A DNA stretch of 64,000 bases from Escherichia coli (GCF_044324875.1 NZ_CP172185.1); one strand, 5' to 3'. Positions 29,724-54,627 are shown, counted from the stretch's first letter. Numbers and translations are program-made. Notes: a model not told the origin generated them from the letters alone.

Positions 29724-30726
29724 CGCGCCAATCTGTGCAATCCAGAGCTTCGAAGGTGCGGCCCCGTTCTTCCGGGTCCAGCGGTCCGAATAAACCTCCC
29801 CCATGAGTTCCCACAGCTTCCAGGCTGTTTCCGTCGCTGATAAATCCGTTTTCACGTTCCCACTGCTCACGTGCTGCCCGAATTTCCTGAACTGCCCGTG
29901 ATGCGGTGCCACCTGGTGCTGCTGCATGGTTCACCCCCTTGCTGACTGGTTTAACCTGCGCCCTGACGTGATTTACGTGACGGGCGAATTTCTGCTCCCA
30001 CTGAACCTGTGTGAACACTTTCCCCTCCGCCATCCAGTAATCCCGGAAGGCGGCAAGTTCAGCAGGTGTAAATTCCGGTTCCGGCAAAGCCGCTCCCCAC
30101 AACGCAGCCCGCCGTCGAAAATCCAGCGACGGATGCCAGCCATCGGCCATCGGAAATTTCCCGATGGGTTCACTCATGCCGTCCAGATATCCGGGCTCCG
30201 TTGCCTGCGATGGCGTACCGTTCGACTCACTGGTCGGAGCACTCTCGCGCACGCGCGCGTTATGTGTGGGGTTTAATTCTTTATCTGTATCTTTATTAGT
30301 TGCCTTTGTGTTTGCGTCATGTTCAAACACCACACCAATATTTGTTTGAACACCTGTTAAATCTCTCTCTTGTTTTGTTTGAACATCTGCTTCCTTTCTG
30401 CTTCTTCTGGCCTGAACAGATGCTTTTCCGGCGGCTGATTTTTTGGTTAATTTTTCCCTGACTGATGCCAGATCTTCCTCAATCCGAAGATGCACCCATT
30501 CATCGCCGTTATCGTGAAAAAACTCCCGCAAGGATGGCTCCACATCAGCCCATCGCTCATTAGTCAGACGGGCAATTTTTGCCAGCCTGTTTTTAGGTAT
30601 TGGCTTTCCTGTTTGCCAGTAATTGAACATCAGCAACAAATATGCACCGTGCTCCTCTGCTGATAAATGCATGGTGTCAGCCAGGTAATCAGCGATGTAC
30701 AGTTGCATGTATGGTAATGCGGCCAT
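29716..30726 (-). CDS. Replication initiator/replisome organiser-like protein (DUF1376/YdaU-like N-terminus, DnaT-like C-terminal region)
   Basis: ORF track, 336 aa; N-terminal YMQLYIADYLADTMHLSAEEHGAYLLLMFNYW; position between the YdaT-like and P-like genes. Confidence 0.6.
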   Translation of the reverse strand: MAALPYMQLYIADYLADTMHLSAEEHGAYLLLMFNYWQTGKPIPKNRLAKIARLTNERWADVEPSLREFFHDNGDEWVHLRIEEDLASVREKLTKKSAAGKASVQARRSRKEADVQTKQERDLTGVQTNIGVVFEHDANTKATNKDTDKELNPTHNARVRESAPTSESNGTPSQATEPGYLDGMSEPIGKFPMADGWHPSLDFRRRAALWGAALPEPEFTPAELAAFRDYWMAEGKVFTQVQWEQKFARHVNHVRAQVKPVSKGVNHAAAPGGTASRAVQEIRAAREQWERENGFISDGNSLEAVGTHGGGLFGPLDPEERGRTFEALDCTDWRDD

Positions 30727-30796
30727 AATTGCCTCTTCTGATACCGAATTCCTTAATCACGTACTACCGAAAGCGATCCGGTATAACTATTGCCAG

Positions 30797-31222
30797 TCAG
30801 TGCATCACCACAGCATTACCCGCCGGGCCACCACGATTCATCTGATTGAAACCGGCGATTGCCACTGCGATAAAATCATCAGCGTCTCTCACCAGCCGTT
30901 CTCGTGTCTCCAGCAGCTCCCTGAAATAGGCTGAGCTGTGGCTACGCATTCTGGCCACCAGCAAAGGCGGCATTGCCTTTTCGATCGCTGGTAGTAACGC
31001 CTGAATTTTTACAACCGCATCAGGGGTGTCTTTCTCCACCCAGCGGAAAATTTTCTGGGTATTACGGGCCAGGGCTTCGGGATGGCTGTCGTCATACAGT
31101 TCCGGGAACGTCATACCCAGCTCAAAATAAGCCCGGGTTATTTCAGCTGCCGGAACTTTTTCGCCATCAGGACGCGCCCAGGCATTCATCGCCATGCGGA
31201 TGTGTTCATGCTTGATTTTCAT
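30797..31222 (-). CDS. YdaT-family protein (CII-position regulator of Rac-like prophages)
   Basis: ORF track, 141 aa; begins MKIKHEHI and ends ...NRGGPAGNAVVMH, as I recall for E. coli Rac YdaT. Confidence 0.55.
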   Translation of the reverse strand: MKIKHEHIRMAMNAWARPDGEKVPAAEITRAYFELGMTFPELYDDSHPEALARNTQKIFRWVEKDTPDAVVKIQALLPAIEKAMPPLLVARMRSHSSAYFRELLETRERLVRDADDFIAVAIAGFNQMNRGGPAGNAVVMH

Positions 31223-31487
31223 GAATCAAGCTCCTAGTAAGTGGTTGTGTTAACGTTTTGGTATCTTCCAGCTCGGGCCAAATATTCATCCAATCAAAAG
31301 GCCTTAGTTGCTGACGTGTAACTTCACCATTACTGGCTCGCTCAATAAGGACACATAACGATGCCCCTAACATTTGACCTTTACTCAATGCCTTTCTTAG
31401 ATAACCGATGCTAGTACCACACTCACATGCAAACATACGCTGTTCATCTGACGAAAGAGAATTGAGAAATATTCTTAATTCTTCCAT
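31206..31487 (-). CDS. Cro-like HTH regulator (YdaS family)
   Basis: ORF track, 93 aa; divergent from the repressor across an operator-containing region; HTH CGTSIGYLRKALSKGQ. Confidence 0.6.
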   Translation of the reverse strand: MEELRIFLNSLSSDEQRMFACECGTSIGYLRKALSKGQMLGASLCVLIERASNGEVTRQQLRPFDWMNIWPELEDTKTLTQPLTRSLIHENQA

Positions 31488-31517
31488 AGCTACTCCTTAG
31501 TAAACACAGCAAAAGAA

Positions 31518-31593
31518 TACCCATAGGTAAACAAAAGTCAATACCCTTGGGTTGTTTACCTTGCGGTAATCGCATCTATTATTTACCTATGGA
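31518..31593. promoter_or_regulatory. Right operator region: three TACCC-N2-GGGTA-type sites between the cro-like gene and the repressor
   Basis: TACCCATAGGTA (31518..31529), TACCCTTGGGTT (31542..31553), TTACCTATGGA (31583..31593, overlapping the repressor ATG). Confidence 0.5.
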
Positions 31594-32008
31594 CAAATAT
31601 GAATTTAGACGACAACAACTCATCAAAATTCGTGATGAGAAATGCGATGGTAAAGCGGTTAACGTGGCCAGAAAGATCGGTCGCGAGCCTTCTTATGTAT
31701 CAAGAATGTTGTACCCAGAGGGGAAAAAAGGAAAAAAACGGATCGCTGATGATATGGTGGAGATTATAGAAGAGTCCTTTGGGTTACCCCGGGGATGGAT
31801 GGATGGTATCGTTTCATCATCAACGAACACAGCCTCCAATTATGAAACAAGGGTTCTAACGCCACGACAACGTATTTTTTTAGATCTCTTAGACGAACTG
31901 CCTGAAAGTGAAGCGGATAACTTATTAAAAACTCTTGAAGAGAAAAAACAGTATTACAATATGATCTACGAAGAAATCCGTAAAAAGAAAGCACAAAACG
32001 CATCATAA
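31589..32008 (+). CDS. Prophage repressor (HTH, XRE-type; no S24 peptidase domain)
   Basis: ORF 31547..32008 with internal ATG at 31589 (MDKYEFRRQQL...); HTH AVNVARKIGREPSYVSRML. Confidence 0.7.
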   Translation: MDKYEFRRQQLIKIRDEKCDGKAVNVARKIGREPSYVSRMLYPEGKKGKKRIADDMVEIIEESFGLPRGWMDGIVSSSTNTASNYETRVLTPRQRIFLDLLDELPESEADNLLKTLEEKKQYYNMIYEEIRKKKAQNAS

Positions 32009-32053
32009 CTCACCAAACAACCAGTCACCAGTTAAGATACATCAAAAAAAAAT

Positions 32054-32090
32054 TACCCATGGGTATTTACTTTTTGGATACCCATGGGTA
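32054..32090. promoter_or_regulatory. Left operator/promoter: two perfect 12-bp palindromes TACCCATGGGTA
   Basis: Palindromes at 32054..32065 and 32079..32090, 25 bp centre to centre; TTTACT-17 bp-TATACT hexamers overlap them. Confidence 0.5.
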
Positions 32091-32283
32091 TACTTTTTTT
32101 CATACCAACCCACCCCGCCCCACAGAACGCAGGGCAATACTTCGAGTTACCAGGCAGTGGTCAGGGGTTAAGTAGCCAGCCCGAGGCGTATGAACATGAC
32201 GGCAGGGTTTAACTTTAACTATGCAGCAGGTTTTTGTTCCGCTACCCCGGCGTTAAGGGGAAACAGCACTGAGAGAAATCAGT

Positions 32284-32502
32284 ATGCAGAAGCGAGAACC
32301 CGTCATCATCTCGCCAGACTATACCGATGATGAACTTTATGAGTGGATGCGCCGGAAAATTCAGGCTGCGCAGGACCTGAAGTGGGCCAATGAAGCCAGG
32401 GCTAAGGAGGCTGAAAATCTGTCAGCTCTGGAGCAGGATATCACCAGGCTGGAAAAAGCAGCGGCATTAAGCATTGCCAGAATGATTACATACCCGCGTT
32501 AA
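32284..32502 (+). CDS. Hypothetical early-left protein (72 aa)
   Basis: ORF track; first ORF after the left operator; not Arg-rich, so not N-like. Confidence 0.4.
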   Translation: MQKREPVIISPDYTDDELYEWMRRKIQAAQDLKWANEARAKEAENLSALEQDITRLEKAAALSIARMITYPR

Positions 32503-32751
32503 CAGCTAATCAACAAGGCCAGGGTTGGTAATTAATGACTTCTCCACGGGTGAGGTGGAGTGCGTGCGCCGGACACAGACTGGTTAACGTCGCCTGGAGG
32601 CACCAGGCACCGCATCAACAAAGTTCACTTCGGTGATGAAAGGTAAGAGAAAATGTTGAATGTAGCTATTGAAAACCAGTACGGGTGGAATTATAGTGCA
32701 CCTGCACCTCATAAAGCGGGTGCCGGGATTGCTACCCCGACGTTCACTAAC

Positions 32752-32785
32752 GCGCATAACCGCGCCCAGGCGGTTTTTTTATGCG
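32752..32785 (+). terminator. Candidate intrinsic terminator/regulatory hairpin in the early-left leader
   Basis: CCGC-GCCCAG-GCGG followed by TTTTTTT, nested in a 7-bp outer stem CGCATAA/TTATGCG. Confidence 0.3.
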
Positions 32786-32946
32786 TAATGCACAGCCACA
32801 TTCAGATTATGGTGGGGCGTGCAGGGCAGCCGCAAGGCTGGCCGGGTTCGTTAGTGACCGGTTGTAGCAACCCTGTACGTCTCACCACCCATGAGATTGC
32901 TACCTCCGGTGGTGAGTTAATCAAATTCACTAACGAGGCTGCCATC

Positions 32947-33501
32947 ATGGCTACTATCCCTACCCTTTCTCACCCTGACATAACCATCAAAAACGGTCGC
33001 GCTGTCACTACGTCTATTGCGATCGCAGAGTTCTTTGGCAAGCGCCATGAACGAGTGCTGGATAAAATTCGCAATCTGGACTGTTCAGCAAAATTCACTG
33101 AGCACAATTTTGTGTCGAGCAAATACACCGACTCAACCGGGCGCAAACTCCCTATGTACCAAATCACCAAAAACGGCTTCGTTTTCCTGGTGATGGGCTT
33201 CACGGGCAAAAAGGCCGCTGCATTCAAGGAAGCCTACATTGCCGAGTTCGACCGCATGGAGGAAGAACTGCGCCGGAATAACACCACACCCGCTGACAAA
33301 ATAATCCCGGGTGATGGCCGCACCCTGGTTATCCGCTTCGACGAACACGGCTACATCAAATTCACCGAAACCGTTCCTGATGGCGCACTGGTCTGTACTC
33401 TGGATACTTTCCGTTTTTATCTGGAAAAGCAGGGATGGACTCTCATAAACCGGGGCGCAATTAAAAATATGACCGTCGAGCAGTTGCTGAGTATTAAATA
33501 G
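32947..33501 (+). CDS. rha: Rha-family phage regulatory protein
   Basis: ORF 32653..33501, start at internal ATG (MATIPTLSHPDITIKNGRAVTTSIAIAEFFGKRHERVLDKIRNL...); motif TKNGFVFLVMGFTGKKAAAFKEAYIAEFDRME. Confidence 0.65.
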   Translation: MATIPTLSHPDITIKNGRAVTTSIAIAEFFGKRHERVLDKIRNLDCSAKFTEHNFVSSKYTDSTGRKLPMYQITKNGFVFLVMGFTGKKAAAFKEAYIAEFDRMEEELRRNNTTPADKIIPGDGRTLVIRFDEHGYIKFTETVPDGALVCTLDTFRFYLEKQGWTLINRGAIKNMTVEQLLSIK

Positions 33502-33546
33502 TTTTCTGGAATTTCCTTCATATCACAAATTATTAAGGAGATTATT

Positions 33547-33768
33547 ATGATTGCTCATCACTTCGGAACCGATGAAATACCACGCCAGTGCGTCACTCCC
33601 GGCGATTACGTTATTTACGAAGGCCGGACATATATCGCCTCGGCAAACAATATCGAAAAGCAAAAACTTTATATCCGTGATTTCACTACAAAAACATGCA
33701 TTACTGACCGCATGATTAAAGTCTTCCTCGGTCGTGATGGTTTACCTGTAAAGGCGGTGGCATGGTGA
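33547..33768 (+). CDS. Hypothetical protein (73 aa)
   Basis: ORF track only. Confidence 0.35.
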
Positions 33769-33887
33769 GCTGTAATAAATAACTGACCCAATACGACATT
33801 CAGCTTAATAAATACATAAGGGTCGATTCTTATATGCCAGCAATGGCAGGGATTCGCACAACCTTAAAACAGCAATGAGGTTTATCA

Positions 33888-35936
33888 ATGAGCACTGATA
33901 AAGAAACTTTTGCGCTATATTGCGAAGCTAAAAATGACAAAGTCAGAAAACGCCTTGGGATTAAAGGTGGTTTTTACTGGACTACAGCAAAAAAATTATC
34001 TGTTGCCATCTCCCGCTGCATTACCGCAATGGATGATAACGATTATGATGAAGACGACTTTAAAAAACCTGTTCGCGTCCATTTGCCCGTTGTTGATGAC
34101 CTTCCACCGGAAGGCGTGTTTGATACCGAATTCTGTAACCGGTATGAAAAAGGCGGCGAAGATGGCATCACAATGATATTTATCGCGCCTCCGCCATCCG
34201 CGCAGGACAAACCAGCCAGCACTGACAACACCAATGTTAATGGCGAAGACATGACTGAGATTGAGGAGAATATGCTTCTGCCGGTTTCAGGTCAGATTCT
34301 GCCTGTTCGCTGGCTGGCGCAACACGGCGGCGAAAAACCAGTAACGCACGTTTCGCGGGATGAACTGCGCTCATTACATAACGCACAGGAAGAAAAACTT
34401 CCCGCCGTTACCGCGCTGGCCATCTCAAATAAAGCAGCGCAACTCGAACCGCTGGAGATTCGGGATTTGTACAAACTGGTGCGGGACACTGACAAAGTTT
34501 TTCCCGCTCCCGTAAATTCAGACCTGGGACTGATGACCTCCTTCATCGAAGCATACCTGGACGCTGACTACACTGATCGTGGTCTGCTTACAAAAGAGTG
34601 GATGAAAGGAAATCGTGTTTCTCGCATCAGTCGCACACCATCCGGCGCTAACGCTGGCGGCGGTATTCTTACCGATCGCGGCGAAGGTTTTGTGCATGAT
34701 AATGCGTCAATGGCATTCGATGTTGCTACAGGAAAACTGGCTCGTTCGATGGATGTGGATATTTACAGCATGCATCCTTCACATACCAGACGTGTTAACG
34801 AAATTATCGCAGAAAATGATCCCTGTTTCTCCGTCTTCCTTAAGGCTTTTCTGAACATGCCAGGCGGGATGGATTATTCCCGCGCCATCGTGGTTGCCTC
34901 CGTGAAAGAAGCACCGGTTGGTATAGAGGCTATGCCCCACCGCGTCACCGAATACCTGAATAAAGTGCTGACCGAAACCGATCATGCCAACCCTGATCCG
35001 GAAATCGTGGATATTGCCTGCGGTCGTTCCTCTGCACCAATGCCGCAGCGTGTAACAGAAGAAGGAAAACAGGATGATGAAAAAAAACCGCAACCGTCTG
35101 GCGCAATGGCAGATGAACAGGCAACTACTAAAACAGTGGAACCGGATACAACTGAACATCATCCGGACACGCAGACGCTGGATGCTCGGCCGCAGGTGAA
35201 TTCTGTTGATGCGAAATATCAGAAACTGCGGGCAGAACTCCATGAAGCCCGGAAAAACATTCCGCCCCAAAATCCTGTCGACGAAGACAAATTGCTGGCA
35301 ACCTCTCGCGGAGAATTTGCTGAAGGGATTAGCGACCAGAATGATCCGAAATGGGTGAAGGGGATTGAAACCCGCGATTCTGTGAACCAGAATCAGCAAG
35401 AAACGGAACAGAACGACCAGAAAGCGGAACAAAACAGCCCAAATGTGCAACGAAAAGAGCCAAAAGCGAAACAATCCGAACCAGTAGCGCAACAGGAACC
35501 GGAAAAAGTCTGCACCGTCTGCGGTCAGAGCGGTGTCGACAACTGTCCTGATTGTGGCGTGGTGATGGGCGACGCAACATACCAGGAAATGTTCGATGAA
35601 GAGAATCAGCCTGAAGTTCAGGAAAATGATCCAGAGGAAATGGAAGGCTCTGCGCATCAGAACAAGGAGAACTCTGGCGGCAATCAGCATCATGCCAGCG
35701 ATAGTGAAACTGGCGAGACGGCAAATCCCTTAATTAAGATAACCAGTCATCACAAATATAAGTCCACAAGCAAAACGTGGTATCACCTGATGATCGACCT
35801 TGAAACAATGGGAACCAACACCAATGCACCCATAGTAGTTATTGGTGCGGTTTTCTTCGACCCGGAAACAGGGGAAATCGGGCCGGTATTTTATATCGTT
35901 ATCAGCCTGACTGACGCAATGAATACAGGGGCTGTT
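33888..35936 (+). pseudogene. RecE/exonuclease VIII-like protein, N-terminal 683 codons; gene interrupted by IS629-like element
   Basis: ORF ends ...[14 protein letters not shown]...DAMNTGAV and takes its stop codon TGA from the first three bases of the IS; the reading frame resumes in phase after the IS. Confidence 0.7.
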
Positions 35937-35990
35937 TGAACCGCCCCGGGAATCCTGGAGACTAAACTCCCTGAGAAAGAGGTAAACAGA

Positions 35991-36317
35991 ATGACTAAAA
36001 ATACTCGTTTTTCCCCCGAAGTCCGTCAGAGGGCGATTCGTATGGTTCTGGAAAGTCAGGGCGAATATGACTCACAGTGGGCGGCAATTTGTTCCATTGC
36101 CCCAAAGATTGGCTGTACACCGGAGACTCTGCGTGTCTGGGTACGCCAGCATGAGCGGGATACCGGAGGCGGTGATGGCGGGCTCACCACCGCTGAACGT
36201 CAGCGTCTGAAAGAGCTGGAACGTGAAAATCGTGAACTGCGCCGCAGTAACGATATCCTTCGCCAGGCTTCCGCTTATTTTGCGAAGGCGGAGTTCGACC
36301 GCCTCTGGAAAAAGTGA
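35991..36317 (+). CDS. IS3-family transposase OrfA
   Basis: ORF track, 108 aa; HTH and leucine zipper. Confidence 0.9.
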
Positions 36318-37204
36318 TGCCACTGCTGGATAAGCTGCGTAAGCTGTACGGGGTCGGACCGGTATGCAGTGAACTACATATTGCCCCGTCAACGTATTAC
36401 CACTGTCAGCAACAGCGACATCATCCGGATAAACGCAGTGCCCGTGCGCAGCGCGATGACTGGCTGAAGAAAGAGATACTGCGCGTATACGATGGGAATC
36501 ATCAGGTATACGGTGTGCGTAAAGTCTGGCGTCAGTTGTTACGGGAAGGAATCAGGGTAGCCAGATGTACAGTGGCGCGCCTCATGGCGGTTATGGGACT
36601 TGCCGGTGTTCTCCGGGGTAAAAAGGTCCGCACTACCGTCAGCCGGAAAGCCGTTGCCGCAGGCGACCGCGTAAACCGTCAGTTTGTGGCAGAACGTCCT
36701 GACCAGTTGTGGGTGGCTGATTTTACTTACGTCAGCACATGGCAGGGGGTCGTCTATGTGGCGTTCATCATTGATGTGTTTGCCGGATACATCGTGGGGT
36801 GGCGGGTCTCATCGTCTATGGAAACGACATTCGTGCTGGATGCTCTGGAGCAGGCGTTATGGGCCCGTCGACCGTCCGGCACAGTCCATCACAGTGATAA
36901 AGGTTCTCAGTATGTATCGCTGGCCTACACACAGCGGCTTAAGGAAGCCGGATTACTGGCATCAACAGGAAGTACTGGTGACTCGTATGACAACGCGATG
37001 GCGGAGAGCATCAATGGCCTTTACAAAGCGGAGGTAATACACCGTAAGAGCTGGAAAAACCGGACAGAAGTGGAGCTGGCCACACTCACGTGGGTGGACT
37101 GGTATAACAATCGACGATTGCTGGAAAGGCTGGGCCATATCCCACCGGCAGAAGCAGAAAAAGCTTATTATGCTTCCATCGGAAACGATGATCTGGCAGC
37201 CTGA
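36314..37204 (+). CDS. IS3-family transposase OrfB (DDE catalytic region; normally expressed as OrfAB by -1 frameshift)
   Basis: ORF track, 296 aa; overlaps orfA by 4 nt. Confidence 0.9.
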
Positions 37205-37246
37205 GTTCACAGATAAAACACTCTCCAGGAAACCCGGGGCGGTTCA

Positions 37247-37654
37247 GTTCCTGATGGTGGCACCATCGAATGGTGGCTGAAGCAGTCCAGCGAAGCCAGA
37301 GCTGCCATTTTAACTGACCAGGTAAAAATGAAAGATGCCCTTTTGCGTTTTCGGGAATTCGTCAATGAACACTCCGATGAAAAATTCGTTCAGGTGTGGG
37401 GTAATGGCGCAACGTTCGATAACGCAATTTTGCGCACCTCATACGAACGTCTGGACATCCCCTGTCCGTGGCATTACAGCAACGATCGTGATGTACGCAC
37501 AATCGTTGAGATGGGGAAAATCACAGACTTCAATGCCAGAAGCGTAATTCCATTCGAAGGCGTGCGCCATAATGCTCTGGATGACGCTCTTCACCAGGCA
37601 AAATACGTAACAGCCGCTATACAAAAACTGATCCCGAATCAGGCTGATTTTTAA
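37247..37654 (+). pseudogene. C-terminal fragment of the IS-disrupted exonuclease (DEDDh 3'-5' exonuclease domain remainder)
   Basis: In-frame continuation VPDGGTIEWWLKQ...; motifs WGNGATFDNAIL and VRHNALDDALH complete the DLETMG motif found before the IS. Confidence 0.7.
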
Positions 37655-37706
37655 TGTTCAACAGTCGCCAGTTGTCGTTGCTATTCTGCAACTGGCGCGT
37701 TCCGGA

Positions 37707-37985
37707 GTGATAGCCATGAGCGAACAGTACCTGATAACGCTCGATGAGTGGAAACCAAAACGGTTCAGTCTCCCAATAACAAACACTACCCTGGTGAAAT
37801 ATGGAAAACTAGGATACATCGTTCCAAGACCACAAAAAATTCGTGGGCGTTGGCTGATAGATCGCCGGGCAGTATTTGTTGGGCCAGGTGAAACAGGAAT
37901 TGCGCCGGAAATTCATACTGGCGATGATGATGCACTGAAGGAGATTTTAACTCATGTCACCGAGGCCACGAAAAAACAGCACTGA
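37707..37985 (+). CDS. xis: Excisionase (Xis-like)
   Basis: ORF track, 92 aa; YLITLDEW...VKYGKLGYIVPRPQKIRGRWLIDRRAV resembles lambda Xis; 3' end overlaps the int start. Confidence 0.6.
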   Translation: MIAMSEQYLITLDEWKPKRFSLPITNTTLVKYGKLGYIVPRPQKIRGRWLIDRRAVFVGPGETGIAPEIHTGDDDALKEILTHVTEATKKQH

Positions 37986-39072
37986 CGTAGCCGGTCTTTA
38001 CGAAAAGTTTGATCGCAGAACTGGCAGGGTTTACTACCAGTATAAAAACCCTGTGACTGGAAAATTTCACGGTCTCGGAACAGACAAATGTAAGGCAGAA
38101 AAAATCGCTTCCACAGCCAATCAGCGAATAGCTGCAGCAGAAGCTGAATATTACATGCGCAAAATTGATGAAAGTCCGTCAGCAACAAAACGTCGGGGTA
38201 TCAGATTAAAGGCATGGGTTGAACGATATCTGAAAATACAGGACACACGACTAAAAAATGGAGATATTGCAGCTACAACCCACAAAGAAAAAGCCCGAAT
38301 GGCTGCATACCTGGTTTCCCGTCTGGGAAACCACCCATTGAAAGAACTGGAAGTAAGAGACTTTGCATTGATACTGGATGAGTGGCTGGATAAAGACATG
38401 GTCAGCACGGCGAGAGTAAACCGTGGATTATGGGTTGATATTTATAAAGAAGCACAGCATGCAGGGGAAGTTCCTCCCGGATGGAATCCTCCGGAGGCTA
38501 CCCGTAAACCGATCCCTAAAGTAAGCAGAGCCAGACTCACCCTGGAAGACTGGCAAAAAATTTACAATGCAACGCCTGAAAGGCACTTTATTCGTAACGC
38601 AATGCTTCTTGCAATTGTTACTGGTCAGCGCCGTGATGACATTTGCCACATGCGTTTTTCAGATGTGTGGAACGAACACTTGCATATCACCCAGGGAAAA
38701 ACCGGAATGCGTCTGGCGTTACCGCTTACACTCCGCTGTGATGCCATTGGGATAACGTTAAAAGAAGTTATTGATGGATGCCGAGACAGAATATTAAGTC
38801 CATACCTAATCCATAGTCGGCACCAGAAACAACCAAAACCGATGAGTAAAGACAACCTGAGCGACTACTTTGCCAAAGCACGGGATCTGGCTGGGATAAT
38901 TCCACCAGCAGGAAAAACTCCTCCCACATTTCATGAACAACGCTCTCTATCAGAACGGCTGTACCGTACGCAGGGTATCGATACAAAAACATTACTGGGA
39001 CATAAAATCCAGGCAACCACCGATCGCTATAACGATACCCGAGGTCAGGAATGGGTTAAGTTGGTTATTTGA
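37954..39072 (+). CDS. int: Tyrosine integrase (lambda Int family)
   Basis: ORF track, 372 aa; C-terminal LLGHKIQATTDRYNDTRG with catalytic Tyr; terminal position next to host DNA. Confidence 0.9.
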   Translation: MSPRPRKNSTDVAGLYEKFDRRTGRVYYQYKNPVTGKFHGLGTDKCKAEKIASTANQRIAAAEAEYYMRKIDESPSATKRRGIRLKAWVERYLKIQDTRLKNGDIAATTHKEKARMAAYLVSRLGNHPLKELEVRDFALILDEWLDKDMVSTARVNRGLWVDIYKEAQHAGEVPPGWNPPEATRKPIPKVSRARLTLEDWQKIYNATPERHFIRNAMLLAIVTGQRRDDICHMRFSDVWNEHLHITQGKTGMRLALPLTLRCDAIGITLKEVIDGCRDRILSPYLIHSRHQKQPKPMSKDNLSDYFAKARDLAGIIPPAGKTPPTFHEQRSLSERLYRTQGIDTKTLLGHKIQATTDRYNDTRGQEWVKLVI

Positions 39073-39238
39073 CAAACACCATATGGAATATCCGTCACCA
39101 TCTCAGGAAAAAAGTGTTGTAAAATGCGTGGCCTTGTTTTGGGGAAAAGTTTTGGAGAGATTTTGGAGAAAGGAAAAAATTGAATAAATTCAAAATCCTG
39201 AAAGTGCTCCACCTTATGAATAAAAAGGTGGAACTCGA
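39073..39238 (+). other. Prophage-host junction (att core somewhere here) with 3'-terminal potB codons (...KVLHLMNKKVELE-stop) ending in ATGA overlap with the potC start
   Basis: Frame ending TGA at 39240..39242 is open back to about 39123 but the potB body is absent, replaced by int. Confidence 0.4.
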
Positions 39239-40033
39239 ATGATCGGTCGACTGCTTCGCGGCGGTTTTATGACCGCTATCTACGCGTACCTGTATATCCC
39301 AATCATTATTTTGATTGTGAACTCCTTTAACAGCTCGCGCTTTGGCATCAACTGGCAGGGTTTTACCACCAAATGGTATAGCCTGCTGATGAACAACGAC
39401 AGCCTGTTACAGGCAGCGCAGCATTCACTAACAATGGCGGTGTTTTCGGCGACGTTTGCTACGCTTATCGGTTCACTGACGGCAGTTGCGCTGTACCGTT
39501 ATCGCTTTCGTGGTAAGCCGTTCGTTAGCGGAATGCTGTTTGTGGTGATGATGTCACCAGATATCGTGATGGCGATTTCGCTGCTGGTGCTGTTTATGCT
39601 GCTGGGTATTCAGCTTGGCTTCTGGTCGCTGCTGTTCTCGCATATCACCTTCTGCCTGCCATTTGTGGTGGTGACAGTGTATTCGCGCCTGAAAGGTTTT
39701 GACGTGCGAATGCTGGAAGCGGCGAAAGATCTCGGTGCCAGCGAATTTACCATTCTGCGAAAAATCATTCTGCCACTGGCAATGCCAGCGGTAGCGGCGG
39801 GCTGGGTGTTAAGCTTTACCCTGTCGATGGACGATGTAGTAGTTTCTTCGTTCGTCACCGGACCAAGCTATGAAATTCTGCCGTTAAAAATTTATTCGAT
39901 GGTCAAAGTCGGCGTATCGCCGGAAGTTAACGCGCTGGCAACCATATTACTGGTGCTGTCGCTGGTGATGGTAATTGCCAGCCAGCTTATTGCTCGTGAT
40001 AAAACGAAAGGTAACACAGGGGACGTTAAATGA
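39239..40033 (+). CDS. potC: Spermidine/putrescine ABC transporter permease PotC
   Basis: ORF track, 264 aa, matches E. coli PotC. Confidence 0.95.
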   Translation: MIGRLLRGGFMTAIYAYLYIPIIILIVNSFNSSRFGINWQGFTTKWYSLLMNNDSLLQAAQHSLTMAVFSATFATLIGSLTAVALYRYRFRGKPFVSGMLFVVMMSPDIVMAISLLVLFMLLGIQLGFWSLLFSHITFCLPFVVVTVYSRLKGFDVRMLEAAKDLGASEFTILRKIILPLAMPAVAAGWVLSFTLSMDDVVVSSFVTGPSYEILPLKIYSMVKVGVSPEVNALATILLVLSLVMVIASQLIARDKTKGNTGDVK

Positions 40034-41076
40034 AAAAATGGTCACGCCACCTGCTCGCGGCGGGTGCTCTGGCACTGGGCATGAGCGCCGCTCACGCCGA
40101 TGACAACAACACGCTGTATTTTTACAACTGGACCGAGTACGTGCCACCAGGACTGCTTGAACAGTTCACCAAAGAAACCGGTATTAAGGTTATCTATTCG
40201 ACTTACGAGTCGAACGAAACCATGTATGCCAAGCTGAAAACGTACAAAGACGGTGCCTATGACCTGGTGGTTCCTTCAACCTATTACGTCGATAAAATGC
40301 GTAAAGAAGGGATGATCCAGAAGATCGACAAGTCGAAGTTAAGCAATTTCAGCAACCTCGATCCAGACATGCTCAATAAGCCGTTTGACCCGAATAACGA
40401 CTACTCCATTCCGTATATCTGGGGTGCGACGGCGATTGGTGTTAATGGTGATGCGGTGGATCCCAAATCCGTTACCAGCTGGGCCGATCTGTGGAAGCCT
40501 GAGTACAAAGGCAGCCTGCTGCTGACCGACGATGCCCGTGAAGTGTTCCAGATGGCACTGCGTAAGCTGGGCTACTCCGGTAACACCACCGATCCGAAAG
40601 AGATTGAAGCTGCATACAACGAGCTGAAAAAACTGATGCCAAACGTCGCGGCGTTTAACTCCGATAACCCGGCGAACCCGTATATGGAAGGCGAAGTTAA
40701 CCTCGGCATGATCTGGAACGGTTCTGCTTTCGTTGCACGCCAGGCGGGTACGCCAATTGATGTGGTGTGGCCGAAAGAAGGCGGCATTTTCTGGATGGAC
40801 AGCCTGGCGATCCCGGCAAATGCCAAAAACAAAGAAGGCGCGCTGAAATTGATCAACTTCCTGCTGCGCCCAGATGTGGCAAAACAGGTTGCTGAAACTA
40901 TCGGTTATCCAACGCCAAACCTTGCGGCGCGTAAGCTGTTAAGTCCGGAAGTGGCGAACGATAAAACGCTCTACCCGGATGCTGAAACCATTAAAAATGG
41001 TGAATGGCAGAATGACGTTGGCGCAGCCAGCAGCATTTATGAAGAGTATTATCAGAAGCTGAAAGCAGGACGTTAA
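40030..41076 (+). CDS. potD: Spermidine/putrescine ABC transporter periplasmic binding protein PotD
   Basis: ORF track, 348 aa, signal peptide, matches E. coli PotD. Confidence 0.95.
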   Translation: MKKWSRHLLAAGALALGMSAAHADDNNTLYFYNWTEYVPPGLLEQFTKETGIKVIYSTYESNETMYAKLKTYKDGAYDLVVPSTYYVDKMRKEGMIQKIDKSKLSNFSNLDPDMLNKPFDPNNDYSIPYIWGATAIGVNGDAVDPKSVTSWADLWKPEYKGSLLLTDDAREVFQMALRKLGYSGNTTDPKEIEAAYNELKKLMPNVAAFNSDNPANPYMEGEVNLGMIWNGSAFVARQAGTPIDVVWPKEGGIFWMDSLAIPANAKNKEGALKLINFLLRPDVAKQVAETIGYPTPNLAARKLLSPEVANDKTLYPDAETIKNGEWQNDVGAASSIYEEYYQKLKAGR

Positions 41077-41085
41077 TTCAGCAAG

Positions 41086-41114
41086 CGGGCGGTGGTATTA
41101 CCGCCCGTTTTTTA
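41086..41114 (+). terminator. Intrinsic terminator after potD
   Basis: CGGGCGGT-GGTATT-ACCGCCCG hairpin followed by TTTTTT, 10 nt after the potD stop. Confidence 0.65.
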
Positions 41115-41133
41115 TTTAGCAAGGATGTGGCTA

Positions 41134-41595
41134 ATGAGTCAGGACAGTAGAGTTTTCTTTCGTATATTCCTCGGTATCGGTCTGGTACTGATCCTCATTT
41201 CTGTTGTTGTCTTTTATAACCAGTTCACCTATAGCAAAGACGCGATTCATACTGAAGGCGTCATTGTTGATACCGTCTGGCACTCCAGTCATTCTCATCG
41301 CACGGGTAAAAATGGTTCGTGGTATCCCGTCGTTGCCTTTCGACCGACGCCTGATTACACGCTAATTTTCAATTCGAGTATCGGCAGCGATTTTTATGAA
41401 GACAGCGAAGGCGATAAAGTTAATGTTTATTATTCTCCAGGGCATCCTGAAAAGGCTGAGATAAATAACCCGTGGGTTAATTTTTTTAAATGGGGGTTTG
41501 TCGGCATTATGGGCGTTATTTTTATCGCCGTCGGTTTATTAATCAGTATGCCCTCCTCTAAAAAGTCACGCAGGAAACGGAAGTCCCGTCCATGA
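41134..41595 (+). CDS. ymfA: Inner membrane protein YmfA
   Basis: ORF 41092..41595 overlaps the potD terminator; start taken at internal ATG (MSQDSRVFF...) giving 153 aa. Confidence 0.8.
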
Positions 41596-42284
41596 AAAAA
41601 ATCATAATACTGCTCAGTTTACTGATACTGCTGCCTCTGACAGCAACCAGTAAGCCCTTAATCCCAATAATGAAGACACTTTTTACGGATGTTACAGGTA
41701 CTGTACCGGATGCTGAGGAGATTGCGCGGAAAGCGGAGCTTTTTCGTCAACAAACCGGGATTGCGCCGTTTATCGTGGTTGTACCTGACGTTAATGAAGC
41801 AAGCTTCAGGCAAAATGGCAAAGCGATGCTGGCGCATGCGTCATCTTCATTGAGTGATGTAAAAGGCAGCGTCCTGTTACTTTTTACCACCCGCGAGCCA
41901 CGGTTAATTATGATAACCAACGGCCAGGTTGAAAGCGGTCTGGACGATAAACATCTCGGCCTTCTGGTTGAAAATCACACTCATGCTTATTTACATGCGG
42001 ACCTCTGGTATCAGGGAATCAATAATGCATTGGCTGTTTTACAAGCACAGATATTAAAACAACCGACGCCGCCACTGACATATTATCCGCATCCCGGACA
42101 ACAGCAGGAGAATGATCCTCCCGGCAGTACCACGATATTAGGTCTTTTTGCCTGGGCAGTTGCATTCATCTTCTTTACTGCATTTTTTTACTACACGACG
42201 CGCCTTAATTATGCATTAAAGTTTGCAGTGGCGATGACTATTGCCAATATGGGTTATCAGGCTTTATGTTTGTACATCGGGTAA
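41592..42284 (+). pseudogene. ycfZ: ycfZ, 3'-truncated by IS1 (230 codons, stop supplied by the IS1 end)
   Basis: ORF track; reading frame runs into the IS1 inverted repeat (GGTAATGACTCC); displaced 3' codons remain after the IS at 43047..43158. Confidence 0.8.
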
Positions 42285-42294
42285 TGACTCCAAC

Positions 42295-42798
42295 TTATTG
42301 ATAGTGTTTTATGTTCAGATAATGCCCGATGACTTTGTCATGCAGCTCCACCGATTTTGAGAACGACAGCGACTTCCGTCCCAGCCGTGCCAGGTGCTGC
42401 CTCAGATTCAGGTTATGCCGCTCAATTCGCTGCGTATATCGCTTGCTGATTACGTGCAGCTTTCCCTTCAGGCGGGATTCATACAGTGGCCAGCCATCCG
42501 TCATCCATATCACCACGTCAAAGGGTGACAGCAGGCTCATAAGACGCCCCAGCGTCGCCATAGTGCGTTCACCGAATACGTGCGCAACAACCGTCTTCCG
42601 GAGCCTGTCATACGCGTAAAACAGCCAGCGCTGGCGCGATTTAGCCCCGACATAGCCCCACTGTTCGTCCATTTCCGCGCAGACGATGACGTCACTGCCC
42701 GGCTGTATGCGCGAGGTTACCGACTGCGGCCTGAGTTTTTTAAGTGACGTAAAATCGTGTTGAGGCCAACGCCCATAATGCGGGCAGTTGCCCGGCAT
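42295..42798 (-). CDS. insB: IS1 InsB
   Basis: ORF track, 167 aa. Confidence 0.9.
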
Positions 42799-42992
42799 CC
42801 AACGCCATTCATGGCCATATCAATGATTTTCTGGTGCGTACCGGGTTGAGAAGCGGTGTAAGTGAACTGCAGTTGCCATGTTTTACGGCAGTGAGAGCAG
42901 AGATAGCGCTGATGTCCGGCGGTGCTTTTGCCGTTACGCACCACCCCGTCAGTAGCTGAACAGGAGGGACAGCTGATAGAAACAGAAGCCAC
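42717..42992 (-). CDS. insA: IS1 InsA
   Basis: ORF track, 91 aa ([30 protein letters not shown]...). Confidence 0.9.
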
Positions 42993-43179
42993 TGGAGCAC
43001 CTCAAAAACACCATCATACACTAAATCAGTAAGTTGGCAGCATCACCTGTACATCGATAATAGCTTTGCGATTACCAGAATATCGCCGCTCTGGGCAGGG
43101 CTGATTGGTGTCTGTACGTTTATTGCCGCGTTGTTATTGACGAGTAAACGGTAAAAGAGGCAGTAAAGTGTGCGTTTAT

Positions 43180-43280
43180 TATGCCGGATGCGGCGCGAAC
43201 GCCTTATCTGGCCCACAAAACCCGCAAATTCAATTAATTGCGTCCCCTTGTAGGCCTGATAAGCGTAGCGCATCAGGCAA
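43180..43280. repeat. REP/BIME-type extragenic palindromes
   Basis: GCCGGATGCGGCGCGAACGCCTTATCTGGCC and TGTAGGCCTGATAAGCGTAGCGCATCAGGC units downstream of cobB. Confidence 0.5.
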
Positions 43281-43291
43281 TGCTTCCTGCT

Positions 43292-44113
43292 TTATAAGCC
43301 CTTCAGCAACTTTTCAACAAACTCTGGCACCACCTGGCTTGCCGGGCCGTAATATTTCTCGGCAAATTCATTACCGACCTGGCTTGGTTCAAGATTCAGT
43401 TCCACGGTGTGTGCGCCATGCAGTTTCGCTTCGTGAACAAACCCAGCCGCCGGATAAACATGCCCTGATGTACCAATGGCAATGAAAATATCGGCCATTG
43501 ACAACGCCATATAAATTTCATCCATGCCGAGTGGCATTTCGCCAAACCAAACGACGTGCGGGCGCAAGGGTGCCGGGAACTGGCAACAATGGCATTTATC
43601 TTCTGGCGTAACGTCTCCGGTCCAGTCGAGAACCTGACCACTTTGCGAACAGCGAACTTTCAGCAGTTCCCCATGCATATGAATGACATTGGTATTACCT
43701 GCGCGTTCATGCAGGTTGTCGATATTCTGCGTCACCAGCAAAAAGCGATCGCCGAGGGCGTCTTGCAGTTTAGCCAGCGCAAGATGCGCGGCGTTAGGCT
43801 GAATTTCTGGCTGCTGTAGCTGTCGACGACGGGCGTTATAAAACGCTTGCACCAGTTCAGGATCGCGATCGAAACCTTCCGGCGTTGCCACATCTTCAAC
43901 CCGATGTTCTTCCCACAGGCCATCTGCGGCGCGAAAGGTACGAATACCTGATTCCGCAGAAATCCCTGCCCCTGTCAGTACGAGTACTCTTGGTTTTTCC
44001 ATTGCTTCCGGCACCACTTTATCTCTGAAAAAAATACGCTGACGCAAACGCTCGCGCAGACGGCGTTTATTTTTACGAAAACGACTTAACCGATGACCCC
44101 GACGCGACAGCAT
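43292..44113 (-). CDS. cobB: NAD-dependent protein deacylase CobB (Sir2 family, long isoform)
   Basis: ORF track, 273 aa. Confidence 0.95.
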
Positions 44114-44128
44114 AGCAACCTCTGTTGT

Positions 44129-45040
44129 TTAATCGGTTAGATGTAGGAAGGCCGCACCACGCATTCCTCCCGCATCACCGTGGCGCGCGCGTTCAATGCG
44201 CGGAACACGAGCTACAGGTAAGAGATGACGAGGCAGCCTGTCCGCCAGTTGCGTTGTGATTGCCGGGAAATTCGATAAGCCACCACCAATGACGACCAGG
44301 TCAGGGTCAACAATGGTCAGGATATTTCCCAGACAAACCGCTAATAAATCCAGATAACGCTCAACGTGCGCCCTTGCCTGCTCATCACCTTGATCATAAA
44401 GCGCAATAATTTCGGGAGCCTGCAACGGTTGATGATAATAGTGTTGATACAGCCACGCAAAACCGCGACCAGACAGATAATTTTCAATGCAGCCATGCTG
44501 ACCACAGCCGCAGCGGCGTAACGGGAAATCCAGCCCCATCATGGTTAACGCATCAACCGGCAGACGCATATGGCCAAACTCGCCGGTAATATAGCTTTTA
44601 CCGGTAATTGGTTTACCGTTGAAAATCAGCCCGCCGCCAACGCCGGTGCCGAGAATCAACCCCATCACTAGTGGATATTGAGTAAATTCATCATCCCAGG
44701 CTTCTGAAAGGGCAAAACAGTTGGCATCGTTATCAAGGCGGACATCGCGATCAAGACGTGCGCTCAGGTCGGCACGCAGCGGTTTACCGCTGGCAGCGGG
44801 GACATTGGCGGCATACAGCGTACCATCTTCTGTTTCCGGCATTCCCGGAATACCGATGCCGACAGAACCTTTACAGCCAAAACGCTTATCGGCTTCAGCC
44901 ACCAGCTCGCACACTGCATCTAAAAATGCGTCATAGCTGTCACGCGGTGTCGGCACCCGCTTTTCCCACTGCAACTGCCGACTGCTATCAAACACGCCAA
45001 GCGCAATTTTTGTTCCACCAATATCAAACCCGTAATACAT
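44129..45040 (-). CDS. nagK: N-acetyl-D-glucosamine kinase NagK
   Basis: ORF 44129..45100; start at internal ATG ([15 protein letters not shown]...) giving 303 aa. Confidence 0.95.
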
Positions 45041-45068
45041 TGCCGCTCCTTGTTTTAATGTACTGCCT

Positions 45069-48317
<3,249 letters not shown>

Positions 48318-48466
48318 TCAATCGACTAAAGGGCCTCATTTTCTCATCGGCCTTGTAGCCTGATCTTTATCTGAAAAATAACCAAATACAGACAGATACG
48401 CATTACACCACGCGACTGGCCCCTCAGGATCAACAGCATGTTAAATAAAAAGAGCGTGTTGTCCTG

Positions 48467-49540: not shown

Positions 49541-49667
49541 GCCATCGCCCCAGCCGGGGCGATTCAATTTGCTAAACCATGTCGATTACGGATAATGAAC
49601 AGCATTGCTTATCAGAGATATGCCCCCATATGTTGAGGCATATCCTAACGAGAATCTGACAACCGTT

Positions 49668-53114: not shown

Positions 53115-53254
53115 TGGTAAATCGGGGGCGTTTCTGCGCCCCCATCTGCAACATTTACAAATTCTTTGCACTTCCCTGCACTATCCGACACTGTCACCAT
53201 CCATAATTCAGGCTTATCTGTTTATTACAATAACCTTATATTTATTATGTATTT

Positions 53255-54220: not shown

Positions 54221-54230
54221 ATCCTGGATA

Positions 54231-54269
54231 AAAAAAATCCCCGCGACACGGCATGTCGCGGGGAAAAAA
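54231..54269 (-). terminator. Intrinsic terminator for bhsA (hairpin flanked by A8/T8 runs)
   Basis: CCCCGCGACA-CGGCA-TGTCGCGGGG; on the minus strand the hairpin is followed by TTTTTTTT. Confidence 0.55.
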
Positions 54270-54302
54270 TCAGCAGTAGCAGGCATTAATGAGGGTTAAT
54301 GC

Positions 54303-54560
54303 TTATTTATAAATTACTGCTGTTCCATGGAGGGTATTTGGACCGGTTACAGAAGTAATACGGAATGATTTTGCGCCCATCTCATCCGCTTTTTGCGCCA
54401 GCTGCTCTTCCAGCGATCCCAGATTTGTCCCCGCGTTAGCACTGATAGTACCGACTTTTTGTTGGCCTTCTGGCGTTGACTGAACTTCGACAGCCGCAAA
54501 GCTGGCAAATGACATTGAGCTTAAAATCGCCGCAGCGATGAGGGTTTTTACGTTTTTCAT
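54303..54560 (-). CDS. bhsA: Multiple stress resistance protein BhsA (YcfR)
   Basis: ORF track, 85 aa, signal peptide. Confidence 0.9.
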   Translation of the reverse strand: MKNVKTLIAAAILSSMSFASFAAVEVQSTPEGQQKVGTISANAGTNLGSLEEQLAQKADEMGAKSFRITSVTGPNTLHGTAVIYK

Positions 54561-54627
54561 AATAGTGGCCTTATGCAGATGAATGACGTCGCAAGCAATT
54601 ACTTAACGATCGACAACTAAATGATAG

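Follow-up and report, generated by a model that had tools for sequence, protein, structure and literature searches.

Which gene has been interrupted by the insertion sequence that lies just ahead of xis-int in this E. coli prophage, and what does the interruption mean for its product? The window analyzed here is the whole stretch of 64,000 nucleotides. An earlier note, made from the sequence alone, had described a RecE-like exonuclease gene of roughly 818 codons, split in frame by an IS629-like element and lacking a visible RecT partner. We recomputed every coordinate and feature in that note from the window and all were confirmed (Table 1), while the codon count and the nature of the nuclease called for amendment. 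Our overall reading, held with high confidence, is that an IS629-group insertion pseudogenized a prophage gene encoding a chimera of a RecE-type region and a DEDDh nuclease domain.

As the note had it, the 683-aa open reading frame (33888..35939, plus strand) is ended by a stop codon that the IS supplies, TGA being its first three bases. When 35937..37249, that is the IS and one GTT, was deleted in silico, a single 2454-nt frame was regained, with the join in frame. The figures of 818 codons for the gene and 135 codons after the IS are right only if the stop is counted; the protein has 817 aa. In the 5′ fragment, a RecE-type N-terminal region (aa 1-616) is followed by the opening 51 residues of the DEDDh domain, Exo I among them; the 3′ fragment bears Exo II and Exo III. 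The motifs read from the raw sequence were recovered in the rebuilt protein: DLETMG (aa 637) precedes the IS, WGNGATFD (aa 733) and HNALDD (aa 790) follow it, and the CxxC...CxxC element is present as CTVC...CPDC at aa 542-556. BLASTP aligns this putative zinc ribbon with CNACG...CPDCG of K-12 RecE, where it is conserved too. The longest free reading frame in the 3′ fragment is 37328..37654 (108 aa), and an internal ATG is the only start signal in that remnant. The succession of a kilR-like gene and the exonuclease gene is the operon order of Rac. Elsewhere in the prophage lies another IS, a member of the IS21 family, and a gene neighboring the locus is truncated by IS1.

Table 1. Features of the interrupted locus, in window coordinates (L002 and L004-L011 are related loci).
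Feature	Position	Strand	Basis
kilR-like gene, directly upstream of exonuclease gene	33547..33768	+	PF27398 KilR on the identical gene in L004-L011; annotated kil in L002
Exonuclease gene, 5′ fragment, codons 1-683	33888..35936	+	ORF list, rebuilt ORF, PF06630, NCBIfam RecE model, BLASTP against K-12 RecE
CxxC...CxxC, putative zinc ribbon (C542, C545, C553, C556)	35511..35558	+	motif positions; alignment with RecE
Target-site duplication GTT, left copy	35934..35936	.	junction sequence; single GTT in empty sites
IS3-family IS, IS629 group, 1310 bp	35937..37246	+	length, ends, copies, transposase profiles
Left inverted repeat IRL, TGAACCGCCCCGGGAATCCTGGAGA	35937..35961	+	repeat search
orfA, 108 aa, helix-turn-helix	35991..36317	+	ORF list, Pfam
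ALIL pseudoknot, frameshift-stimulating RNA at orfA/orfB overlap	36272..36388	+	Rfam RF01497
orfB, 296 aa, DDE/rve catalytic domain, -1 frame relative to orfA	36314..37204	+	ORF list, Pfam, NCBIfam
Right inverted repeat IRR	37222..37246	+	repeat search
Target-site duplication GTT, right copy	37247..37249	.	junction sequence
Exonuclease gene, 3′ fragment, aa 684-817 and stop	37250..37654	+	ORF list, rebuilt ORF, Pfam, motifs
Excisionase, downstream of exonuclease gene	37707..37985	+	ORF list, related loci
Integrase, after excisionase	37954..39072	+	ORF list, related loci
potC, abutted by prophage end	39239..		ORF list, related loci

The assignment of the element to the IS3 family, as IS629-like, was borne out by its structure and by its relatives. 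It begins with TGAACC and ends with GGTTCA, and its 25-nt inverted repeats match at 23 of 25 positions (92% complementary). The ALIL pseudoknot scored 116.2 bits against a gathering threshold of 50 (E 2.5e-30). Pfam domains HTH_Tnp_1 (PF01527), HTH_21 (PF13276) and rve (PF00665) were found in the transposase, and the NCBIfam model transpos_IS3 gave 308.7 bits (cut-off 160), its positions 1-86 and 93-369 being covered by the two reading frames. A fully identical copy (100%) is found in E. coli 23CRST013, and copies with at least 80% coverage occur in 3042 of 5426 complete E. coli genomes. In ISfinder, an isoform shares more than 90% nucleotide identity with its reference IS. Copies entered by their depositors as IS629 (BP-4795, Stx2_499) share 95.7-96.1% identity with the element, and one called 'IS1203 family' by PGAP shares 95.1%. 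It resembles the IS629/IS1203/IS3411 group in its 1310-bp length, its 25-nt inverted repeats and TG...CA termini, its 3-bp duplication, its orfA/orfB pair with -1 frameshift and ALIL pseudoknot, and its 95-96% identity to IS629/IS1203 copies. It also fits the preference of the group for prophages, which house 62% of O157 IS629 copies (PMC3271280). IS629 subtypes lie 4-5% apart (PMC3271280); that of the window is about 5% from O157 IS1203 and from the copies in PK8241 and NZRM4169.

Empty sites were found at eight potC loci with the same integrase (L004-L011), which carry the uninterrupted 817-aa gene, frameshifted in L006. At all eight, the junction reads GGGGCTGTT followed directly by CCTGATGG, with one GTT only, in agreement with the 3-bp duplication that had been proposed. 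In the interrupted allele, the junction 30-mer is ACAGGGGCTGTT joined to TGAACCGCCCCGGG, with an equivalent at the right end. Leaving L006 aside, these genes have 2-10 nt differences from the rebuilt one, 2 of 2454 in the nearest intact allele (L011); their xis-int regions are 99.9-100% identical to that of the window and their early-left regions 99.1-99.9%. By these comparisons the insertion is recent, because the gene has no other lesion and, once rebuilt, matches an intact allele at all but 2 nt.

The gene itself is common and the interrupted allele is rare. Matches to the exonuclease gene with at least 80% coverage occur in 1141 of the 5426 complete E. coli genomes, about a fifth, and hundreds of proteins of 812-818 aa combine PF06630 and PF16473 under the names exonuclease or 3′-5′ exoribonuclease; the gene is also found in induced phages, for example vB_EcoM-606R7. 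The IS-gene junction occurs in one of the 5426 genomes, and exact-sequence look-ups returned no record of the 683-aa fragment, the 108-aa remnant or a 687-aa fragment from strain PK8241. The only contigs recovered for the lineage, by way of the IS1-truncated neighboring gene, were two short-read contigs of 4.7 kb that end before IS629. Among all 5426 complete genomes, the best match to the chromosomal part of the window reaches 98.6% identity; its exact Mfd protein is, however, on record in E. coli. The homologue has decayed by other routes as well, through the frameshift in L006 and through IS insertions at other codons in NZRM4169 (codon ~369) and SD134209.

E. coli PK8241 carries an IS629 at the same nucleotide, in the same orientation and with the same GTT duplication. 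The PK8241 element differs from that of the window at 70 of 1310 nt and belongs to another IS629 subtype; the exonuclease allele that it interrupts is about 85-90% identical to the window allele and, once rebuilt, has uninterrupted and 100% identical counterparts in three genomes. By sequence comparison these are two independent events, because the elements are of different subtypes and each allele has an intact twin. One old insertion common to both prophages, blurred by mosaic recombination and later gene conversion of the IS, would dispense with a hot spot altogether. It would fit the similar divergence of the IS (94.7% identity), the 150 bp to its left (95.3%) and about 40 bp to its right (97%), next to remoter parts of the gene that are 43-90% identical between the two; both prophages also lie at potC, and the several IS629 subtypes in PK8241 are possible conversion donors. 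However, an intact counterpart that is all but identical exists for each allele (that of the window differs at 2 nt, that of PK8241 at 0 nt), the 70 differences are scattered across the whole IS, and a transferred tract would have to end within 5 nt of the IS, since allele-specific SNPs lie 6 and 12 nt beyond the right end of the element. A shared insertion is therefore improbable in our judgement.

With two independent events to go by, IS629 seems to prefer this insertion site, which would make it a local hot spot. Of 12 positions compared, the target and the IS terminus share 9 (AGGGGCTGTTCC against CGGGGCGGTTCA), a match equalled at 1.0% of window positions. The choice of 'end-like' targets, which resemble an inverted repeat, is described for IS911; we know of no such description for IS629. 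No target of this kind was present at three other IS629 sites (two in exonuclease homologues, one in a neighboring integrase pseudogene). SD134209, considered as a third same-site insertion, was rejected: its IS lies at a different site and the flank similarity is due to chance. Rump et al. found no sequence-specific target for IS629 (PMC3271280), and a target hit twice independently contradicts the view that the element has no preference. This matters for IS629-based typing of O157 and related E. coli, in which a shared site is read as shared ancestry.

What became of the gene can be outlined as follows. A lambdoid, Rac-like prophage lies beside potC in the E. coli chromosome, with an 'exonuclease' gene of ~815 aa as its last early-left gene ahead of xis-int. 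An active-looking IS629-group element transposed into codon 683/684, duplicating GTT and placing its first triplet, TGA, where it now ends the protein. In the predicted product the N-terminal region is complete and Exo I is retained, and Exo II and Exo III would be lacking. Nuclease activity has probably been lost, because the IS parts Exo I from Exo II and Exo III. The truncated 683-aa protein could retain whatever role the N-terminal module has, given that the module is predicted to fold with high confidence (AF2 pLDDT 92.4).

The split might alternatively be functional, either through selection for the 683-aa protein or through an IS that silences or regulates xis-int and so locks the prophage. 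The first version gains from a module that is predicted with high confidence to fold alone and from the 46 of 78 long representatives of it in which single-sequence phmmer detects neither a DEDDh nor a RecE-type head; when those 46 proteins were scanned with Pfam, two matched RecT and one gave a weak hit to the PDDEXK-like DUF3799, with no others. The second gains from the position of the IS, directly upstream of xis-int and in the same transcriptional direction, and the IS21-family element would fit domestication or decay. Against both stand the rarity of the allele, with its single junction and unrecorded fragments, the intact gene in near-identical prophages and the other routes by which the homologue decays elsewhere. 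Consensus scans predicted no terminator on the plus strand of the IS, which leaves a polar effect on xis-int unsupported, and around the IS promoter and terminator scores were at or below shuffle expectation and thus uninformative on polarity. A functional split is in our view quite improbable; pseudogenization by the IS629-group element is of the ordinary kind, and the pseudogene call is routine.

The label 'RecE-like exonuclease' holds for the front of the protein and fails for its nuclease. In BLASTP, aa 58-616 of the rebuilt protein align with residues 50-591 of K-12 RecE at 69% identity over 559 residues, and no RecE similarity was detected past residue 591; tblastn of the window likewise matched RecE 50-591 only. 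Exonuc_VIII (PF06630) was found at aa 57-189 with 94.4 bits against a cut-off of 25. The NCBIfam RecE model (NF007259) reached 1010.2 bits, below its cut-off of 1269, and covered only model positions 1-620 of 877. The PD-(D/E)XK 5′-3′ nuclease domain that makes RecE catalytic spans residues 564-866 (PMC11611040), and Pfam found no match to PDDEXK or DUF3799 in the rebuilt protein. Instead, the search with the rebuilt protein, which the earlier note had proposed as a check, returned an exonuclease domain of the Rv2179c-like family (PF16473) at aa 633-805, with E 1.2e-67, 227.5 bits against a cut-off of 27 and profile positions 2-175 of 177. PADLOC gave a weak generic DEDDh match and nothing else. 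The DEDDh residues are D637 and E639 (Exo I, DxE), D740 (Exo II) and H790 and D795 (Exo III, H-x4-D), and MAFFT aligned Exo I and Exo II with D7/E9 and D119 of T4 DexA. DexA (8KEL) is also the sole sequence match in the PDB (E 1.5e-8); the two share 30% identity, and their catalytic residues align. Literature searches on PF06630, PF16473 and Rv2179c-like proteins in a prophage setting found nothing relevant.

On its domain assignments, then, the gene product is a natural chimera, in which a RecE-type N-terminal region is joined by a zinc-ribbon/acidic linker to a C-terminal DEDDh domain of 3′-5′ type. The substrate of that domain is probably DNA, as for DexA; by analogy with Rv2179c it may instead be RNA. 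A genuine RecE (exonuclease VIII) that lost its RecT partner or never had one, as part of an orphaned or unusual RecET system, would agree with the clear RecE homology of the N-terminal 616 residues, with the PGAP name 'RecE family exodeoxyribonuclease' for the 5′ fragment of the PK8241 pseudogene and with several phage records that label the whole protein 'exodeoxyribonuclease VIII'. Yet the RecE catalytic domain has no counterpart here, the RecE family model falls short of its cut-off and stops at position 620, and the nuclease comes from another superfamily with the opposite polarity. At the level of sequence this reading is already refuted, and we rate it very improbable.

The reported absence of RecT was confirmed and has a simple explanation in the chimera. 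No match better than E 0.005 to RecT, Bet, lambda Exo, Gam or the RecE nuclease domain was obtained by tblastn in the 64-kb window, and neither RecT nor Bet occurs at any of 11 related loci. RecT partners a 5′-3′ resecting nuclease, and a 3′-5′ enzyme has no need of it. As judged from these loci, this common gene family normally goes without RecT, and its absence here is no anomaly, because the nuclease is of 3′-5′ type and RecT is missing from all 11. Annotators should accordingly not deduce 'RecE', 'exodeoxyribonuclease VIII' or a RecT partner for members of the chimera family.

Misplacement of a repeated IS by misassembly is extremely improbable: IS629 is multi-copy in E. coli and short-read assemblies break at such repeats, the lineage contigs of 4.7 kb included, but the perfect 3-bp duplication, the complete ends of the 1310-bp element and the exact in-frame empty site speak for real transposition, and the same junction is present in an independent complete genome, that of PK8241.

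A bolder pair of ideas, which we put forward jointly and tentatively and regard as rather doubtful, is that codon 683/684 is a true IS629 hot spot and that the RecE-type N-terminal region is an autonomous module. By analogy, a 12-nt stretch mimicking the IS terminus may guide the transposase to an end-like target. The N-terminal 400 residues, for their part, may form an autonomous and structurally unprecedented module; in nature its heads are PD-(D/E)XK, DEDDh, occasionally RecT, or none that is recognized. If so, the module would act independently of resection polarity, for example in the recruitment of DNA ends or host factors, and the IS-truncated protein would still perform that function. 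To our knowledge, no function has been known for the N-terminal region of RecE from its first description onward. In this analysis the fold of the region is predicted with confidence and has no relative among solved structures, and the region is found joined to nuclease heads of either polarity, which narrows its possible roles and puts natural chimeras at hand for tests.

Among known systems, RecE of the Rac prophage (K-12 b1350) is the closest in position and in its front part. It occupies the same early-left slot, after kilR and before xis-int, and the identity over its residues 50-591 includes the CxxC...CxxC element and the acidic linker; in the window gene, however, a DEDDh domain replaces the PD-(D/E)XK domain, and the Rac neighbors recT, ralR and rcbA are absent. 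Rv2179c of M. tuberculosis, the type member of PF16473, is matched over nearly the full length of the family, whereas it is described in Pfam as an exoribonuclease, lies in a chromosomal, non-phage context and has no N-terminal extension.

For the nuclease, the closest counterpart is T4 DexA (exodeoxyribonuclease A; 8KEL/8KEN), with which Exo I (D, E), the Exo II Asp and the stretch TIEWW...Q.S.EAR align. DexA is likewise phage-borne and a 3′-5′ DNA exonuclease, an activity predicted from sequence for the window domain, but it is a free-standing protein of 227 aa from a lytic phage, whereas the window domain sits at the C terminus of a prophage protein of 817 aa and lacks several of the DexA loops. 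The DexA residues that recognize 5hmC, W152 and D169, have no unambiguous equivalents: when the two proteins are aligned pairwise (30% identity), the Trp of PCPWHY and the Asp of KITDF stand 1-2 positions off those columns and out of register. In a single pairwise MAFFT alignment, again at 30% identity, an Asp (KMKD) lies opposite DexA D90, and DexA S87 is replaced by Lys. EcD/HREX, a DexA-like DEDDh exonuclease that is also encoded in E. coli, is reported to degrade 5hmC-modified T4 DNA and to protect against T4 (PMC12153337). From its description, EcD is set apart as an apparently short stand-alone protein (A78 is numbered opposite DexA D90), and its defining feature is the Ala at the D90 position, that is the loss of the tetramer-forming Asp, which the window protein keeps. 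By analogy with EcD/HREX, defence against superinfection may be a role of the intact gene.

On direct reading of the sequence, the interrupted exonuclease ORF encodes 683 aa and ends in a TGA stop codon formed by the first three bases of an insertion of exactly 1310 bp. This element starts with TGAACCGCCCCGGG and ends with CCCGGGGCGGTTCA, carries terminal inverted repeats of 25 nt that match at 23 positions, and is directly flanked by GTT on both sides. We removed the IS together with one GTT (35937..37249) in silico, as the earlier note had proposed, and obtained an intact ORF of 2454 nt, encoding 817 aa plus stop, in which the 3' remnant has the same frame as the 5' part. The in-frame split, the 683-codon ORF, the stop supplied by the IS, its 1310-bp length and the GTT duplication had all been described correctly in that note, whose counts of 818 and 135 codons take in the stop.

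Coordinates of the features discussed, in the window unless another locus is named
Feature	Coordinates	Particulars
IS21-family element	25999..27800	istA, 340 aa, rve; istB, 260 aa, IstB_IS21, E 8e-112
Rha/Phage_ASH-family regulator ORF	32653..33501	
isrK and C4 antisense RNA	32704..32892 (+)	Rfam, 62.7 and 78.2 bits
Exonuclease ORF	33888..35939	
Left GTT	35934..35936	
Inserted IS	35937..37246	
orfA	35991..36317	HTH_Tnp_1
ALIL frameshift pseudoknot	36272..36388	Rfam, 116 bits against a gathering score of 50
orfB	36314..37204	-1 frame; HTH_21 and rve
Right GTT	37247..37249	
3' remnant of exonuclease gene	37250..37654	
Truncated TPM_phosphatase-family ORF	41592..42284	
IS1 copy	42280..43047	768 bp; 9-bp duplication TGTACATCG
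IS in PK8241 (L001, NZ_CP080139)	5192..6501	1310 bp
Exonuclease gene in L006	3248..5702	frameshift
IS629-group insertion in NZRM4169 (L014)	3609..4918	codon ~369; TSD CTG
IS629-group (IS1203) insertion in SD134209 (L015)	4031..5340	about codon 468; TSD GCT

The two ORFs of the element jointly span the NCBIfam IS3-transposase model (positions 1-86 and 93-369 of 369), and copies labelled IS629 by their depositors in phages BP-4795 and Stx2_499 are 95.7-96.1% identical to it. Subtypes of IS629 (IS1203, Shigella-type, O26-type) lie 4-5% apart, and prophages hold 62% of O157 IS629 copies (Rump et al., PMC3271280). Given this IS3-family anatomy with its ALIL pseudoknot, the similarity to labelled copies and the known subtype divergence, the designation IS629-like was right. 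E. coli 23CRST013 has a 100%-identical copy, and 3042 of 5426 complete E. coli genomes have a copy at a coverage of at least 80%.

To describe the gene as a RecE-like exonuclease, as the earlier note did, is accurate for its N-terminal region only. Pfam assigned Exonuc_VIII (PF06630) to aa 57-189 of the rebuilt protein and an Rv2179c-like 3'-5' exoribonuclease domain (PF16473) to aa 633-805 (E 1.2e-67), and the NCBIfam RecE equivalog model was covered at positions 1-620 of 877 only, with 1010 bits, below its 1269-bit cut-off. BLASTP aligned aa 58-616 with residues 50-591 of K-12 RecE at 69% identity and found no similarity to RecE beyond these limits. Since the nuclease domain of RecE comprises residues 564-866 (the function of its N-terminal domain being unknown; review PMC11611040), homology ends at the start of the RecE catalytic domain, and the domain that follows in the window protein belongs to a different superfamily. 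Its DEDDh set consists of D637/E639, D740 and H790/D795, which bears out the motifs proposed earlier; the IS follows residue 683 and thereby splits this set, with Exo I on one side and Exo II on the other. Judging from these motifs, the 683-aa product could not be an active nuclease because its Exo I is separated from Exo II.

With tblastn, queries of RecT, lambda Bet, Exo, Gam and RecE found no match in the 64-kb window except that to the RecE N-terminal region, in agreement with the earlier remark that no RecT partner is visible. RecT and Bet were likewise absent in 11 of 11 related loci with a DEDDh-type gene. The order in annotated relatives is kil - exonuclease - excisionase - integrase, whereas that of Rac is kilR - ydaE - racC - recE - recT - ralR - rcbA - xisR - intR. 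An annealase partner goes with 5'-3' resection that leaves a 3' tail, as established for Red and RecET (PMC11611040); an exonuclease working 3'-5' would not supply an annealase with substrate. We conclude that members of the DEDDh-type family normally lack RecT. The notion of a RecE without RecT dissolves once the DEDDh domain is identified in place of the RecE nuclease.

Exact look-up of the window integrase found many contigs, from which eight loci were retrieved (L004-L011), all with the same prophage adjoining potC. Relative to the window, their xis-int is 99.9-100% and their early-left region 99.1-99.9% identical. Seven of the eight carry an uninterrupted 817-aa gene with both domains, differing from the rebuilt gene by 2-10 nt; in the exception, L006, the same gene is inactivated by a frameshift instead. 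The empty site reads GGGGCTGTT followed directly by CCTGATGG, with GTT once only, which is the in-silico equivalent of the junction PCR suggested previously. The two differences from L011 (nt 1149 and 1288) are well removed from the point of insertion (nt 2049/2050), and the insertion is young because the rebuilt gene has no other lesion. These data show that the insertion is a real, recent transposition. In the comparison with window 30600..45100, the core genes that flank this nearly identical prophage are only 96-99% identical to the window, which indicates that the phage has recently moved horizontally among E. coli lineages.

A search of 5426 complete genomes with the left junction matched one genome, PK8241 (chicken, Pakistan), whose prophage is likewise at potC. 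Its IS is at the identical nucleotide, shares orientation and GTT duplication with the window IS, and differs from it at 70 of 1310 nt spread along its length. Identity between the two genes is no more than about 85-90% and falls under 60% in some blocks. Rebuilding the PK8241 gene gives an in-frame join, and the sequence agrees at 100.0% with uninterrupted copies from three further genomes, so that each disrupted allele has a virtually identical intact twin. Allele-specific SNPs also persist in the flanks, at distances of 6 and 12 nt from the element. Because of these twins and flanking SNPs, the simplest reading is that two IS629 subtypes inserted recently and independently. With 2.45 kb of gene and either orientation available, any one pair would coincide by chance about once in 4900; the four IS629-group insertions seen in the gene family (window, PK8241, NZRM4169 and SD134209) make six pairs, and thus a chance of roughly 1e-3. 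The target AGGGGCTGTTCC, which ends 2 nt past the insertion point, agrees at 9 of 12 nt with the terminus of the IS (CGGGGCGGTTCA), a score reached by only 1.0% of window positions; the other three IS629 sites compared match at 5-6 of 12. Loot et al. are said to have found in 2002 that IS911, of the IS3 family, inserts beside end-like sequences. IS629 has no sequence-specific target according to Rump et al. (PMC3271280). Our one site is suggestive of an IS629 hot spot at an end-like target. Homologues of the exonuclease are inactivated elsewhere too, making the gene a recurrent prophage casualty.

An intact IS629-group element thus entered the gene by copy-out/paste-in, with a premature stop arising at its boundary. 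Loss of 3'-5' exonuclease activity is very probable, and the truncated protein may keep its N-terminal function. A polar effect on xis-int was not supported. The event is an unremarkable case of pseudogene formation by an IS, in a prophage that is decaying.

A profile-free, exhaustive search of aa 1-618 against 1.84 billion representatives matched only 224 clusters. Among the best 150, 78 were long: 14 had a DEDDh head, 18 a RecE-type head and 46 neither, and a Pfam scan of these 46 found RecT in two, a PDDEXK-like domain in one and nothing further. The RecE-type N-terminal module is, by these comparisons, real and portable. P0153 and one other protein of alignment A2 join this region to a C-terminal domain of the RecT family (Pfam RecT, best E 1.2e-42); these are either natural NTD-RecT fusions or the outcome of a deletion that joined recE to recT. 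The recurrent insertion site and the modular N-terminal domain are worth following up, and nothing else.

The IS21-family element is a second IS inside the prophage. In the nearby chromosome, an IS1 copy interrupts a TPM_phosphatase-family gene; this insertion is missing from all eight related loci, and the truncated product occurs in two short-read contigs only. Back to back at the 5' end of the Rha/Phage_ASH-family gene, isrK and C4 form a c4-ant-like immunity module of the P1/P7 type, here within a lambdoid prophage and its early-left operon. The window lineage is IS-rich and also sparsely sampled, since its chromosomal part (39100..64000) is at best 98.6%, typically 97.4-97.8%, identical to any of the 5426 complete genomes; its exact Mfd sequence is on record in E. 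coli.

At a coverage of at least 80%, the rebuilt gene is present in 1141 and the PK8241 allele in 1214 of the 5426 genomes. The protein database holds hundreds of PF06630+PF16473 proteins of 812-818 aa from E. coli/Shigella, named 'exonuclease', '3'-5' exoribonuclease' or at times 'exodeoxyribonuclease VIII', and the gene is also found in induced temperate phages. A literature search on this architecture found no paper. The intact protein plausibly works on DNA ends, in the early-left programme or against superinfecting phage. Among solved structures, a sequence search found T4 DexA alone (8KEL, E 1.5e-8); in pairwise alignment it is 30% identical to the window protein, and the Exo I and Exo II motifs match up. 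The nearest functional lead is EcD, a DexA homologue of E. coli, which is reported to degrade 5hmC-DNA and to confer protection from T4 (Kang et al. 2025, PMC12153337). A role in T4 defence is hypothetical because, by the criteria of Kang et al., the window domain does not look EcD-like: it keeps Asp at the DexA D90 position, and its Trp and Asp recognition residues are out of register with those of DexA in the alignment.
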